DNA of 64,000 nt from an uncultured Anaerolineales bacterium (lineage in GTDB: Bacteria > Chloroflexota > Anaerolineae > Anaerolineales > UBA11858), in NCBI GenBank assembly GCA_964458115.1, contig CAYWIC010000003.1:1255-65254 (forward strand), written 5' to 3'. Position numbers and translations under genes: made by a program. Numbering within the stretch: position 1 is the first letter of the stretch; each line of letters starts with the position of its first letter. A model generated the notes under the pieces. It searched no databases. It had not been told where the DNA came from and was given only the letters and a program-made list of their open reading frames with translations. Positions 43,085 to 63,726 of this stretch are shown piece after piece.

Positions 43085-43597
43085 TCACTCCGCAAGCGAT
43101 TGACGCACTTTATCGGCATCGAGGCTACCAATTTCTCGCCACAACTCTTCACCTCGCGGGTCGAAAAATACAAAAGTTGGTGTAAAAGAGCCATAATCGC
43201 GTGCAAGTTGTTGTCCTAAATCTGACTGCACATCTACCCGTACAACTTTCAGGCTATCTGGGAATTCAATTTCTAATCCATCCACGATGGGTTTTGCTGC
43301 TGCGCAAGCAAATCAATAAGGCGATTGCATCTCCAATAACACTGCCTGGCCTTGGCCTATTTCAGACTCGTACTGGTCCAACTCAATACTGGTACCTGGT
43401 TGGGGGCGCATGGAGAACCAACCAAAAAATAGAAAGACAGCAAGTACGATCAATATCACACCATCCTTGGGTGTGTATCCATCTCTTAAAAGTAGGAGTG
43501 CTGTAAAACCAAATACAAATAGAGCACTGATTAATATTGAGTAGTGGTTAATTATTTGCACCTTATCTCCTAGTTTCGTCCTTGACCCGTTATCCAT
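43085..43597 (-). CDS. Membrane-anchored thioredoxin-fold protein with in-frame TGA (43315-43313) at the first position of the redox motif: candidate selenoprotein (U-F-A-C)
   Basis: Track ORFs 43313-43597 and 43085-43285 are in one frame, separated by TGA plus 9 sense codons. The joined read is ...AVLLEMQSPY-TGA-FACAAAKPIVDGLEIEF..KVVRVDV..GSFTPTFVFFD. The Trx fold, including the cis-Pro TPT, is intact downstream of the TGA. Confidence 0.65.
43275..43312 (-). promoter_or_regulatory. Candidate bacterial SECIS hairpin(s) downstream of UGA
   Basis: mRNA UGA-UUUGCU-ugcgcagc-AGCAAA, and AACCCAUC-GUG-GAUGGAUU (one mismatch, G-first loop starting 27 nt after UGA). Folded by eye only. Confidence 0.35.
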
Positions 43598-43631: not shown

Positions 43632-43713
43632 GCCAAAGTGGCGGAACTGGCAGACGCGCACGACTCAAACTCGTGTTCCTTCGGGAGTGTGGGTTCGATT
43701 CCCACCTTTGGCA
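43632..43713 (+). tRNA. tRNA-Leu (anticodon CAA), type II with long variable arm
   Basis: Acceptor GCCAAAG/CTTTGGC, anticodon arm CACGA-CTCAAAC-TCGTG, variable arm TTCCTTCGGGAGT, T arm GTGGG-TTCGATT-CCCAC, discriminator A. CCA is not encoded. Confidence 0.9.
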
Positions 43714-43729
43714 CAGCGATTATAATTGA

Positions 43730-44042: not shown

Positions 44043-45203
44043 TTAGGGTTCACAAGCGCTATCAGGAATGCCTATCGAGCCGCCATTCGAAAGGTCAATC
44101 TTGAGGTTTTTCGTCAACTTGCCACCACACGTATTCAGATTATAGGTGTATGTCGTTCGATCGACGGTGAATGTCTCTGCCTTTTCAGCACCTACAGTCA
44201 AGTAATAGAACTGCCCGCCTGCTCCATGCATATACACATATGCGGGTTTTTCGCTATTGTTATCAACAAGGAATCTGGCCAATTGGGGACGAGCAGATAG
44301 TACCTGGGCTGAAGGGGTTGTGGTTTTCGTCTCACAGGTTGCCGGAACGACCAGGCTGCCACCGTTGGAAAGGTTGAGAGCGTTATTTTTCGACATCTTC
44401 CCGTCACATGAGCCCAAATTATACGTGTAGGTCGTTCTTTCAACTGTGAATGTTTTTGAAGTATTCGCAGCAACTGCCAGGTAATAGTACTGACCGCCCG
44501 CGCCATGCAAATAGACATAGGCAGCATATGCACTGCGGTTGTCAACGGTGAATCTGCCCAATTGTGGTCGAGCGGATAGTACTTGGGCAGAAGGAGATGT
44601 GGTCGATGTCTCACAAGTTGCTGGGACGACCAAACTGCCACTGTGGGAAAGGTCGATCGCTTTGTTCTTAGAAAGTTTTCCACCACACGAATTCAAATCA
44701 TACTTATAGGTCGTTCGATCCACTGTGAATGTTTTCTCAGTCTTCGCTGCAACCGTCAGGTAATAGAACTGCCCACCTGCACCACGTAGATAAACATATG
44801 CGGTATATGCGCTGCGGTTATCAACCGTGAATCTACCCAATTGCGGTCGAGCAGATAGAACTTGTGCTGAAGGAGTTGTGGTTTTAGTCTCACAAGTGGC
44901 TGGAACAACTATGCTACCACCGTCTTTCAGATCGATCGATCCACTGGCAGATGTTCCACCACAAGTCACTAGCTTGTAAGTATATTTCACTCGCTCTACA
45001 GTGAATGTGCTCGAGGTCCCCGCCGCGACAGTCAAGTAATAGTATTCTCCCCCGGCGCCATTCATGTAAATATATGCAGGATAAGCACTATTATTATCAA
45101 TCGTAAATCGGGCTAATGTGGGTCGGGCGAATGCTGTCGAAGTCGATATTAGCAACAACGCCATAACAATGAATAATACTGCGGACAGTTTCTTGATCTT
45201 CAT
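44043..45203 (-). CDS. Secreted protein made of four ~88-aa tandem repeats, two Cys per repeat
   Basis: Start at ATG 45203/45206 after GAGGAGG. Signal peptide MKIKKLSAVLFIVMALLLISTSTAFA. Repeat unit ARPQLGRFTVDNRSAY.AYVYL.GAGGQ.YYLTVAA.T.KTFTV.RTTY.Y.L.SCGGK...VVPATCET.TT.PSAQVLS, four times. Confidence 0.8.
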   Translation of the reverse strand: MKIKKLSAVLFIVMALLLISTSTAFARPTLARFTIDNNSAYPAYIYMNGAGGEYYYLTVAAGTSSTFTVERVKYTYKLVTCGGTSASGSIDLKDGGSIVVPATCETKTTTPSAQVLSARPQLGRFTVDNRSAYTAYVYLRGAGGQFYYLTVAAKTEKTFTVDRTTYKYDLNSCGGKLSKNKAIDLSHSGSLVVPATCETSTTSPSAQVLSARPQLGRFTVDNRSAYAAYVYLHGAGGQYYYLAVAANTSKTFTVERTTYTYNLGSCDGKMSKNNALNLSNGGSLVVPATCETKTTTPSAQVLSARPQLARFLVDNNSEKPAYVYMHGAGGQFYYLTVGAEKAETFTVDRTTYTYNLNTCGGKLTKNLKIDLSNGGSIGIPDSACEP

Positions 45204-45409
45204 CATGATCCTCCTCATGAAACGTGTGAATAAAAACCCTATAAACAGAATATTCAAAAATAATTTTTAAACAATAGTACTTTCGGTTTATTTTCGGATT
45301 AAAGAGGTCATAAATGTGGGCAGCTTTGTTAAATTTCGCGTTAACGTCATGAAACAATGGGAAACCAGCATATAATTGCGAATACATAAACTTATTCCGG
45401 GAGGATCTT

Positions 45410-46336
45410 GTGCCATCACTAAACGAAGTTCTTGGTGTGATCATGGGGGGCGGTCGCGGTTCCCGACTCTACCCGCTGACCCGCGACCGAGCAAAACCAG
45501 CTGTACCCATCGCCGGGAAATATCGCATCATCGATATTCCTATCAGCAATTGCATCAATTCACGTATCGACCGCATTGCTGTTCTGACACAATTTAACTC
45601 GTTATCCCTGCATCGGCACATCACCAGCACGTACAACTTCGACCCATTCCACCAGGGATGGGTACAAATATGGGCTGCTGAACAAACAGATATCAATCCA
45701 AACTGGTATCAGGGCACAGCGGATGCGGTGCGTCAACAACTCCTTGAGATTCGCTCAACAGGCGCGAAGTATGTGATCATCCTGGCAGGCGATCATCTGT
45801 ACCGAATGAGCTATGCTGAGATGGCTCGCTTCCCTTGGGAAAAAAGCGCGTACATCACTGTGGCTGTTCAACCGGTATCCCCAGAACAAGCTCCTCGTTT
45901 TGGGTTACTTAAAAAGGATACAAACTTTGCGATTTCCGATTTTGTAGAGAAACCGAAAGATCCACAAATTCGAGCTCATTTTGCAAGCCGGGAAGACCCT
46001 TCTCGTCCCTACTTAGGTTCCATAGGTTTCTATTTCTTCAACACGATGCACTGATACAGGTCTTGGAAGGAAGCACAGAGGACGATTTTGGTGGGGAAGT
46101 GATCCCCAAGGCGATCCTCAGCCACAGAGTGTATTGTTTTGATTTTGACGACGGGTTGCGCACCCAGATCCAACGCGAAACCAAAATCTCAACTACCATT
46201 TTAATGGGTGTCGATTATTATGATCCTCACAATGGATATCGACAGCCAAGACTACTTTGTACGCGATGGAATAGTCGTCATCCCCAAGAATTCAACACTT
46301 CTCCCCGGATTTGTAATTGGACCGAAAAATTTATAA
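45410..46336 (+). pseudogene. glgC: Decayed glucose-1-phosphate adenylyltransferase gene
   Basis: N-terminal 214 aa are intact (GVIMGGGRGSRLYPLTRDRAKPAVPIAGKYRIIDIPISNCINS). A frameshift near 46040 creates TGA 46052. The next frame continues DALIQVLEGSTEDDFGGEVIP...FDFDDG, then about 100+ codons are missing. The C-terminal remnant DGIVVIPKNSTLLPGFVI is in a third frame and ends at TAA 46334-46336. Confidence 0.8.
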
Positions 46337-46343
46337 AAAAAGC

Positions 46344-46378
46344 CTGCGCAATACTGAACTGCGCAGACTTCTTTCTTT
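46344..46378. terminator. Weak hairpin + T-rich tract between the glgC remnant and the osmC-like gene
   Basis: CTGCGCA-atactgaac-TGCGCAG-acTTCTTTCTTT. Confidence 0.45.
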
Positions 46379-46380
46379 GC

Positions 46381-46788
46381 CTATGACATTGCTACCTCGG
46401 CGGTAGTGATTTCGAATATAGGGGGCATCTCCATGTGCTTCTTAACGGCACATTGCTCTGCAGAGCGAACCAAAGCGCTGCGATATTTTTCGGGGAATTC
46501 CGGGGGCACCTGAATTTCGAGCTGAACTGTACCAACCATACCGCGATTGATGGGGTCAGGAACAGCTCGCTGCACAATGCGGATTCCCTCCGTAGACAAG
46601 CCTCGCTGTTTGCAGAAACCCAAAACATAGATCCCCGCGCAGGTTCCCAGGGAAGAAAGAAACACTGCAAAAGGCGTTGGGGCAGAACCTTCTCCGCCAC
46701 CCATGGGAGGTTGATCTGTCTTTACGGTATAAGGGCCAAAGCTGGCATCTACGCGTGCGCCGCCGGGGAAGTTTATGATCATTTCCAT
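46381..46788 (-). CDS. OsmC/Ohr-family peroxiredoxin-like protein
   Basis: 135 aa with two conserved Cys contexts, LGTCAGIYV and SAEQCAVKKH. Confidence 0.85.
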   Translation of the reverse strand: MEMIINFPGGARVDASFGPYTVKTDQPPMGGGEGSAPTPFAVFLSSLGTCAGIYVLGFCKQRGLSTEGIRIVQRAVPDPINRGMVGTVQLEIQVPPEFPEKYRSALVRSAEQCAVKKHMEMPPIFEITTAEVAMS

Positions 46789-62573: not shown

Positions 62574-63224
62574 TCAACTCTCATCATCTAGTGGGACGAT
62601 GCGTTGTTTAATGGCAAAAATGGCTGCCTGGGTGCGGTCGGTGAGTTGTAATTTGCTGAGGATATTGCTGACGTGGGTTTTGACGGTTTTCTCACTGACT
62701 ACCAGGGAAGCCGCGATTTGGCGATTATCCAGCCCTTGAGCGATTAGCTTCAATACCTCTAGCTCGCGCGCAGTCAGACTTTCAAGGGAGGGTGCATCTC
62801 CGGAGATCTCCTCCATTAGCCGCTTGGCAATGCGGGGATGCAGACGAGCTTCGTGTCGCGCTGCCGCCTGGACTGCCTCGATGACTTCTTCGGGAAGGGA
62901 ACTTTTCAACAAGTAGCTCAAAGCCCCGGCCTTGATTGCGGGAAAGACCAGGGCATCTTCGTGATGGCTGGTGAGCACCACCACTTGTGTATGAGGGCTG
63001 ATTTCACGGATCTGGCGGGTGGCCTCGACACCGGTCATTCCAGGCATGACCAGGTCCATCAGCACAACATCTGGAAGCAAGTCAGCGGTGTTCTCGACGG
63101 CCGATTGTCCATCTTCTGCTTCACCAAGGATTTCAAGATCATCCTGAACTTCAAGCAGTTGGCGCAAGCCCTGGCGAACGATAGGATGATCATCGACAAT
63201 CAGGACGGTTATGGTTTCGGTCAT
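62574..63224 (-). CDS. NarL/LuxR-family response regulator
   Basis: REC domain VLIVDDHP...DVVLMDLVMPGMTG. HTH domain LTARELEVLKLIAQGLDNRQIAASLVVSEKTVKTHVSNIL. Confidence 0.9.
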   Translation of the reverse strand: MTETITVLIVDDHPIVRQGLRQLLEVQDDLEILGEAEDGQSAVENTADLLPDVVLMDLVMPGMTGVEATRQIREISPHTQVVVLTSHHEDALVFPAIKAGALSYLLKSSLPEEVIEAVQAAARHEARLHPRIAKRLMEEISGDAPSLESLTARELEVLKLIAQGLDNRQIAASLVVSEKTVKTHVSNILSKLQLTDRTQAAIFAIKQRIVPLDDES

Positions 63225-63282: not shown

Positions 63283-63726
63283 TTATACATCTTCCAACAA
63301 AGACAACGTCATTTCGGTCACGACTTCAACATAGTGATAGCAATGTTCGGCCTGATTTTTTGCCCGAAACTCGGCCTGGCCTTCTTCAGTAGCCAAATCA
63401 ACCTGGGTTAGTTGTCCGCAGTTGGTTGAGCCAAACTCAGCATCGAACCTTGATACCAATTTCCGAACCAGCCGATAGTTCTCTTCCACAGATTCATGGG
63501 GAGCGCTCCTACCGGTAAGCATGCTGATCCCCAGGATCGCACCACTCAGCGCGCCGCACTGGCTACTTGTGCGGGCGATGCCGCTGCAAAATCCGGTGGC
63601 AATCTTGGGAATCAATTCGGATTGAATACCTTTCGTTTCGGCAACTGCCAAAAGGACACTTTCCGCTCAGTAGAATCCGCCGGTGCTGAAGAGTTCTCTG
63701 GCGCGTTGGGGGGCATTATCGGTCAT
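63283..63726 (-). CDS. C_GCAxxG_C_C-family putative redox protein with in-frame TGA (63669-63667) at the first conserved Cys: candidate selenoprotein
   Basis: The track ORF starts at a TTG that is really internal. Upstream in frame: AAGGAGataccaATG (63726) MTDNAPQRARELFSTGGFY-TGA-AESVLLAVAETKG... The remaining family positions are present (SQCGALSG, TNCGQL, AEHCYHY). Confidence 0.65.
63629..63655 (-). promoter_or_regulatory. Candidate bacterial SECIS hairpin downstream of UGA
   Basis: mRNA CCUU-UUGGC-AGUU-GCCGA-aacga-AAGG. The tetraloop starts 20 nt after UGA and has G at its second position. Folded by eye only. Confidence 0.35.

Follow-up and report, generated by a model that had tools for sequence, protein, structure and literature searches.

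Selenoproteins with a UxxC motif (U, selenocysteine, Sec) on a thioredoxin fold are a classic class. The Sec-containing thioredoxin (UxxC, PF00085; e.g. the Treponema denticola Trx) is an experimentally verified prokaryotic selenoprotein family (PMC13188914). Here, a stretch of 64,000 nucleotides from an uncultured Anaerolineales bacterium (GenBank assembly GCA_964458115.1, contig CAYWIC010000003.1, positions 1,255 to 65,254; the whole stretch is called the window and its first letter is position 1) was compared with related loci, and a minus-strand gene for a thioredoxin-like protein, interrupted by an in-frame TGA at 43315-43313, was characterised. This UGA probably encodes selenocysteine, and we put the probability of that reading at roughly 0.88. 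The product would be a 158-residue selenoprotein in which two N-terminal membrane helices precede a thioredoxin-fold domain with a U-x-x-C motif (here U-F-A-C). That the gene encodes a selenoprotein had been proposed in an earlier note on the same DNA, and the proposal is supported by a U/C column in the orthologues, a conserved and covarying hairpin, coding conservation downstream of the TGA and a second case in the window.

As in Sec thioredoxin of the Treponema denticola type, a thioredoxin fold is combined with Sec as the predicted first residue of U-x-x-C, with Cys homologues and with a candidate selenocysteine insertion sequence (SECIS) element inside the coding sequence (CDS) just downstream. 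Unlike Sec thioredoxin, which carries W-U-G-P-C, the window protein has SPY-U-[FILMV]-x-C and an N-terminal hairpin of two membrane helices, its domain is probably extracytoplasmic, and its family is centred on Anaerolineales. It also differs from canonical TrxA (NCBIfam TIGR01068, an equivalog model; WCGPC, soluble, about 105 aa) in its motif YUFAC and its two N-terminal membrane helices, and it scored 32.7 bits against this model, where the cut-off is 96.8. Only generic thioredoxin models were returned by the NCBIfam scan (E up to 1), and none of SaoT (NF040730), HUIPC (NF047660), VPGUxxT (NF041383) and TsoA LULAxC (NF045695) was among them. Other thioredoxin-fold UxxC families in the table of a recent review were likewise found by TGA/Cys logic, and the two-helix anchor and SPY-U-x-x-C motif of the window protein are not described in that table (PMC13188914). 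The precomputed Pfam domains of Cys homologues include PF13098, for which the window protein scored 23.2, below the gathering threshold of 27; Redoxin (PF08534) and AhpC-TSA (PF00578) gave no match in the window protein at E up to 1.

In oxidoreductases of the ResA/TlpA/CcmG type, a single helix serves as the anchor, and the domain, of TlpA/Redoxin type, contains an insertion. Like these, the window protein bears a CxxC-type thioredoxin-fold domain on an N-terminal hydrophobic tether preceded by positive charges, likely outside the cytoplasm. Unlike them, it has two helices and a minimal thioredoxin-type domain, and plain thioredoxins give the closest structural matches. Near the gene, the related loci showed no conservation of ccdA/dsbD or of genes for cytochrome c maturation. 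The gene adds a member, arguably a new subfamily, to the UxxC thioredoxin-fold selenoproteins, if the UGA is read as proposed.

The in-frame TGA and its cysteine counterparts

Positions 43597-43085 of the minus strand form one frame of 170 codons, in which the TGA at 43315-43313 is the sole internal stop. The joined frame reads ...AVLLEMQSPY-[TGA]-FACAAAKPIVDGLEIEF...KVVRVDV...GSFTPTFVFFDPRGEEL..., and the frame reading confirmed the statement of the earlier note that two open reading frames (ORFs) are one frame broken only by this codon. The resolving Cys and the TPT loop, which the note had called intact, are present downstream (Table 1). As the start codon, the ATG at 43597 is less likely than the GTG at 43561-43559, which fits the public ORF call, a GGAG sequence upstream and the family N-terminus, since the resulting MQIINHYS follows the consensus M-x-x-[IF]-[IV]-N-H-Y-S.

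Homologues were collected from two sources. Searching at the protein level yielded about 17 full-length homologues that carry QSPYC[LIV]xC, and three closer relatives. A genome scan with one genome per species returned 220 relatives, of which the best 80, those most similar to the Sec-form query, were used. The resulting set of 84 orthologues comprised the window, three metagenome contigs and 80 genome loci, the latter nearly all from metagenome-assembled genomes of Anaerolineales/Chloroflexota, together with the isolate Longilinea arvoryzae KOME-1 (NZ_DF967972.1; locus L061), which has the TGA form and would read QSPY-U-LAC.

An alignment with Cys orthologues had been suggested as a check, and the expected U/C column was found: after LLExQSPY, the codon is TGA in 63 of the 84 orthologues and TGC or TGT in the other 21. 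The DNA of the three closest metagenomic relatives (93%, 64% and 59% identical) has TGA at this column throughout; gene callers wrote W in two of them and truncated the third. Cys forms are single proteins of 157-162 aa.

Downstream of the TGA the frame behaves as coding sequence. The codon of the resolving Cys is TGY in all 62 distinct TGA forms, and TPTF is invariant in the family alignments. Substitutions between related pairs show the same kind of third-position bias downstream of the TGA as upstream; in the pair L044/L055, for instance, the three codon positions differ 5, 3 and 14 times downstream vs 15, 9 and 25 times upstream. The view that the gene is not dead, already taken in the earlier note, thus gains support from the downstream third-position bias and from the resolving Cys in every distinct TGA form.

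These observations make it extremely improbable that the TGA is a nonsense mutation that disabled a Cys (TGC/TGT) or Trp (TGG) codon and left the downstream part of a pseudogene unexpressed. TGA is one step from TGC, TGT and TGG, the public annotation shows two short ORFs, and the window and L004 (genome CAYTKR01), the only close pair in their clade, differ by few substitutions, non-synonymous ones being about as frequent as synonymous ones, so that selection is not demonstrable in this clade alone. Across the family, however, the TGA is common to 63 orthologues down to about 40% identity, with no other stop and no frameshift, neither the resolving Cys nor the cis-Pro motif varies, substitutions downstream keep the coding-type bias, and parsimony places TGA at the root of the sampled family.

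The hairpin downstream of the UGA

The model of bacterial SECIS (bSECIS) elements describes a stem of 4-16 bp, a loop of 3-9 nt that begins with G then U, a distance of 16-37 nt from UGA to loop, and a minimum free energy (MFE) of -7.5 kcal/mol or lower (PMC13188914). With the U of the UGA counted as base 1, a family hairpin was found in which bases 25-30 (CCNRUC) pair with bases 34-39 (GAYNGG) over 6 bp, and bases 31-33 form the loop, which is GUG in 55 of the 63 TGA forms and starts 27 nt after the UGA. The stem spans the codons of P-(I/V)-V-D-G. Its loop, stem length (6 bp in the family, 5 bp in the window) and spacing all fit the bSECIS geometry. It resembles the bSECIS consensus (PMC13188914) in its 3-nt apical loop with G then U, its 6-bp upper stem and its spacing; unlike the consensus, it is close to the smallest size that the model allows, its loop being minimal, and it lacks a bulged U and a conserved lower stem. 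No family matching the hairpin was found in Rfam.

Across the 62 distinct TGA forms, 95.4% of the cells in the stem are paired, vs 31-61% after a shift of the 3' partner by 1-3 columns, and the covariation score of the hairpin was unreached in 500 shuffles. Pair 28/36 is AU in 32 forms, GC in 29 and something else in one; it joins the first base of Ile AUC or Val GUC to the synonymous third base of Asp GAU or GAC, and switches at least 11 times on a neighbour-joining tree. Pair 27/37 is CG in 54 forms and UA in six, where Pro CCU goes together with Arg AGG, which replaces Gly GGG. Codon choice in the TGA forms is narrow: Pro is CCC in 56 and CCT in 7 (CCG/CCA, 0), Ile is ATC in 34 of 34, and Gly is GGG in 44 of 50.

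The 21 Cys forms differ in each of these respects. Only 62.7% of their hairpin cells are paired, the Pro codons CCG, CCT and CCC are about equally frequent, and Gly follows Asp in 3 of 21, vs 50 of 63 TGA forms (p 1.5e-7). The median MFE of the 27-nt region is -3.4 kcal/mol in Cys forms vs -8.1 kcal/mol in TGA forms (p 2e-5), and 53 of 63 family members reach -7.5 kcal/mol or lower over this 27-nt segment. The SECIS check that the earlier note had called for thus gave a hairpin of suitable geometry with compensatory and synonymous changes in TGA forms. RNA signal and protein appear, on these alignments, to share clearly the same 15 nucleotides and to constrain each other, with covariation at synonymous sites; as the hairpin is made from the P-(I/V)-V-D-G codons, the RNA requirement would also constrain the local protein and its codon usage.

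In the window, only the inner 5 bp of the stem pair (43290-43286 with 43282-43278), and the outer pair is a C-A mismatch because the Gly codon is GGA; the closest relatives L003 and L004 share this GGA and the 5-bp stem. The hairpin CCAUC-GUG-GAUGG (43290-43278) folds at -5.0 kcal/mol (z -1.4), no better than shuffled sequence, and a 45-nt stretch that also includes a hairpin directly after the UGA folds at -11 kcal/mol (z -1.0), no better than chance. As the window hairpins are not above chance singly, their significance comes only from the comparison with relatives.

The hairpin directly after the UGA (UUUGCU...AGCAAA) had been named alongside CCAUC-GUG-GAUGG in the earlier note. Both exist in the window, and only the latter is conserved in the family. 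The former is clade-specific, with 54% of its cells paired across the family, and was rejected as a part of the recoding signal.

By the standard bacterial route, SelB with Sec-tRNA(Sec) would bind the small hairpin within the CDS, and the UGA at 43315-43313 would be read as Sec. The gene also ends in TGA, so that two UGAs lie in one mRNA and the cell must distinguish them; the local SECIS element would do so, and the final UGA, which has no such element, would terminate translation. Within the protein, Sec, as the N-terminal residue of the motif, would serve as the nucleophile that attacks and would form a selenenylsulfide with Cys86, and the protein would act as a membrane-tethered thiol-disulfide oxidoreductase.

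Decoding of UGA in the organism

Among the 51 ORFs of 200 aa or longer in the window, TGA is the terminator of 17, and it also ends the thioredoxin-like gene itself, from which a standard genetic code follows; a reassigned code (table 4 or 25) was ruled out on this ground.

The earlier note had pointed to a second case at 63669, and it proved to be real. It lies in a gene for a protein of the C_GCAxxG_C_C family, a listed selenoprotein family (PMC13188914), with a clear PF09719 match (Table 1). Full-length homologues have Cys at the column of this TGA (..YYCAESVLLA..). The closest database relatives (73-90% identical) were called as N-terminally truncated proteins of 122 residues, and three contigs with a product 88% identical keep the TGA and the 19 codons before it. 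The UGA is followed by a hairpin with an AGUU loop, which starts 20 nt from the UGA. Judged by its sequence, the organism has at least two TGA-for-Cys genes in 64 kb. In relatives, the C_GCAxxG_C_C gene has a HisKA_3 histidine kinase on one side and a LuxR-type response regulator on the other, and in the window a LuxR-type response regulator lies nearby at 62574-63224; this suggests that the protein is a redox-sensing accessory to a two-component system.

Genes for the Sec machinery were searched for in the available sequence. No tRNA-Sec was detected by ARAGORN in the window or the related loci (about 1.4 Mb), tblastn of the window and 89 loci with approximate E. coli SelA, SelB and SelD queries gave only two GTPase-domain matches, and no sel genes were present in the 10 kb past the window end on a same-species contig. 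The earlier note had likewise reported selA, selB, selD and tRNA-Sec as missing from the window. In other Chloroflexota, Dehalococcoidia metagenome-assembled genomes contain 46-49 selenoprotein genes (PMC13326102), and hydrogenases of the Sec type are present in the phylum (PMC13582414). Literature searches returned no paper on Anaerolineae selenoproteins. We infer that the inserted residue is Sec and that selA, selB, selD and selC are present in the genome. Two candidate selenoprotein genes in 64 kb and TGA in 63 of 84 loci indicate that Anaerolineales commonly use selenocysteine.

Downstream hairpins can in general stimulate read-through. The UGA could accordingly be read as Trp, Cys or Arg by a near-cognate or suppressor tRNA in a lineage lacking Sec machinery, the hairpin possibly acting as stimulus, and the machinery was indeed not found in the sequence searched, while two gene callers gave W under an alternative code. 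We consider this unlikely: the codon alternates with Cys codons only, and does so at the catalytic CxxC position, which is a Sec signature; the hairpin has features of the SelB type, its small apical loop opening with G-U 27 nt from the UGA; TGA serves as a normal terminator for this gene and for others in the window; TGA also occupies a Cys position in another redox gene of the window; and Sec use is documented in Chloroflexota.

Public records (NCBI/ENA/JGI) contain the window gene as two unnamed ORFs, one of 82 aa that ends at the Sec codon and one of 66 aa (43088-43285, minus strand), whose GTG start at 43283-43285 coincides with the loop of the SECIS-like hairpin. When 1.84 billion representative proteins were searched with a profile, many of 82-86 aa were found to end exactly at the Sec column, and others of 70-75 aa to begin at the loop of the hairpin.

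RF2 is a competitor of Sec insertion. Termination could be the main outcome at this UGA, with read-through marginal and the functional product an 82-residue two-helix peptide, alone or with the 66-residue fragment from GTG 43285. The two ORFs found by gene callers, the many fragments in the representative library, the weak hairpin of the window and the efficiency of Sec insertion in E. coli, reported as 30-40% in one study (PMC4513850), all speak for such an outcome. It is nonetheless improbable, as the segment F-A-C-A-A-A-K-P-I between the TGA and GTG 43285 holds the resolving Cys and shows conservation at the protein level together with synonymous variation, the 66-aa fragment has neither the CxxC motif nor the first strand and helix of the fold, GTG 43285 is a conserved hairpin loop and has no Shine-Dalgarno sequence, and the Cys forms are undivided proteins.

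Several points weigh against decoding as selenocysteine, or against parts of the picture built on it. The window hairpin is of the weakest type in the family, and its energy on its own does not reach the model limit. The full 6-pair hairpin is not exclusive to TGA forms, being kept in four of the 21 Cys forms (loci L035, L043, L045 and L050, bases 25-39 after TGY), where it is probably a relic of recent Sec-to-Cys conversion. Conservation of the peptide PIVDG could be a partial source of the hairpin conservation; the covariation at synonymous sites speaks against its being the whole explanation. The absence of selA, selB, selD and tRNA-Sec from the window and loci concerns a tiny genome sample and is uninformative rather than negative. 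For the outward topology of the protein, discussed below, the positive-inside rule is the single basis, and no conserved neighbour gene in the related loci hints at a redox partner.

Protein architecture, evolution and genomic context

The positions of all features are listed in Table 1.

Table 1. Features of the thioredoxin-like gene and of the second TGA-containing gene in the window.
Feature	Position	Strand	Basis or remark
CDS of the thioredoxin-like gene	43085..43561	-	158 codons plus terminator; single frame
Likely start codon, GTG	43561-43559	-	Yields MQIINHYS...; GGAG upstream; public 82-aa ORF begins here
Upstream in-frame ATG, less likely start	43597-43595	-	
Shine-Dalgarno-like GGAG, 5 nt upstream of the GTG start	43567..43570	-	Read from the sequence
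Transmembrane helix 1, residues 9-25, ILISALFVFGFTALLLL	43487..43537	-	Hydropathy 2.0 over 19 residues; helical in AlphaFold2 (AF2) model of Cys homologue
Transmembrane helix 2, residues 35-50, VILIVLAVFLFFGWFS	43412..43459	-	Hydrophobic; helical in AF2 model of Cys homologue
Thioredoxin-fold domain, residues about 61-156	43094..43381	-	Pfam PF00085 and AF2 model of Cys homologue
In-frame UGA, proposed Sec codon, residue 83, first position of the U-F-A-C redox motif	43313..43315	-	TGA/Cys column
First hairpin, UUUGCU...AGCAAA, directly after the UGA	43293..43312	-	43312-43307 with 43298-43293; folds in the window
Resolving Cys codon TGC, residue 86	43304..43306	-	T10 and G11 invariant in 62 distinct TGA forms; position 12 C or T
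SECIS-like hairpin over P-I-V-D-G	43277..43291	-	Arms 43291-43286 and 43282-43277; loop GUG 43285-43283
T-P-T, cis-Pro loop of the thioredoxin fold, residues 127-129	43175..43183	-	T, P, T and F (nearly) invariant in family alignments
True terminator, likewise TGA	43085..43087	-	Frame reading
C_GCAxxG_C_C family protein, 147 codons	63283..63726	-	PF09719, 95.6 bits, E 2.7e-27
In-frame TGA at the first Cys of the C_GCAxxG_C_C family	63669-63667	-	Cys in homologues

Two N-terminal transmembrane helices and a thioredoxin fold had been predicted in the earlier note, and both were recovered as two hydrophobic stretches (158-aa numbering) and as a PF00085 (Thioredoxin) match above threshold, with 29.3 bits vs a cut-off of 23.5 (E 8.7e-7; Cys substituted for the stop; residues 73-168 of the 170-aa form). 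The fold was modelled on the Cys homologue P0003, 48% identical to the window protein, and not on the window protein itself. In this AF2 model (pLDDT, the predicted local distance difference test, 91.9), two long helices precede a compact thioredoxin fold, and the solved structures that match it best are ordinary thioredoxins (Foldseek E about 2e-8, target TM-score 0.74-0.81). A helix comes after U83-F-A-C86, as for a CxxC motif at the N-terminal end of helix 1, and the invariant T127-P-T129 corresponds to the cis-Pro loop.

Charges around the helices were counted in 78 family members. The segment of helix 1 has zero charged residues in all of them, the N-tail has a mean K+R of 0.10, the 9-residue loop between the helices is rich in K/R (mean K+R 2.77), and the 15 residues after helix 2 have a mean K+R of 1.76 at a net charge of about 0. 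By the positive-inside rule, the K/R-rich loop would be cytoplasmic and the thioredoxin domain would lie on the outer face of the membrane, a topology that we somewhat favour.

With the 84 proteins on a neighbour-joining tree rooted at its midpoint, parsimony gives Sec at the root and at least nine changes to Cys; the evidence is weak, as the tree is built on about 150 residues and the 80 matches are those closest to a Sec-form query. The probable relic hairpins of some Cys forms agree with Sec at the root. Replacement of Sec by Cys is rare in bacteria outside FdhA and SelD (PMC13188914).

Recurrent neighbours in relatives are a divergent EF-G-like gene (68 loci), a PF01676 metalloenzyme gene (46 loci), cysK and a MoaD-like gene, none of which adjoins the thioredoxin-like gene in the window. 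In most relatives, the PF01676 gene is located downstream and the EF-G-like gene upstream. The EF-G-like gene accompanies Sec forms (48 of 63) and Cys forms (20 of 21) alike, and the conserved neighbours look like synteny rather than a functional clue. A CysK/CysM-like cysteine synthase and a small MoaD/ThiS-like protein ending in GG are encoded near the gene in 16-29 loci (3-5 kb upstream; L016, L011 and others); the pair recalls the CysO-CysM route of cysteine synthesis.

In the window, two tandem GNAT acetyltransferase genes (PF13302; 41909-42520 and 42496-43056, minus strand, overlapping by 25 bases) lie directly downstream of the gene, an arrangement specific to the clade of the window. 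Just upstream, past a tRNA-Leu(CAA) at 43632-43714, a secreted-looking protein of 404 aa is encoded at 44043-45257 (minus strand), with four tandem DUF6759 repeats of about 95 residues (..RPxLxRFTVDNxSAYxAYVY..GAGGQxYYLTVAA..TFTV.R..Y.Y.L..C..). A glgC-like nucleotidyl-transferase gene at 45410-46054 (plus strand) ends at a TGA after 214 codons (PF00483 positions 2-182 of 245) and seems to go on for about 100 codons in another frame (46063-46386, plus strand), with the usual C-terminal domain missing. This gene is frameshifted or truncated, or reflects an assembly error, and its TGA is no candidate for Sec, as the same frame does not go on beyond it.

Taken on its own, the finding leaves the understanding of Sec decoding and thioredoxin chemistry unchanged and is a fairly ordinary addition to a well-known class. 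BSepDB was built by homology to known families from 64,762 genomes. It may already include these genes, e.g. under 'Thioredoxin'. We tentatively suggest, as a possibility short of a firm proposal, that the family is a distinct and uncatalogued selenoprotein subfamily of Anaerolineales, in which Sec is the ancestral and majority state, the domain is tethered by two helices and probably faces outward, Cys forms have arisen at least nine times, and an in-gene SECIS dictates P-I/V-V-D-G and its codon usage; Sec decoding would then be common in a class whose papers found here do not discuss it.

For annotation, the consequence is practical, as the gene is listed in many related genomes either as a pair of unnamed ORFs (about 82 and 66-75 residues) or as a translation with W. 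A rule that looks for QSPY-TGA-xx-TGY followed by the hairpin CCNRUC-GUG-GAYNGG would mend dozens of species-level genomes. For the family itself, the tree possibly reflects repeated reversion from Sec to Cys in a thiol oxidoreductase; if true, repeated change of this kind in a thioredoxin-like family would be a mildly unusual pattern.

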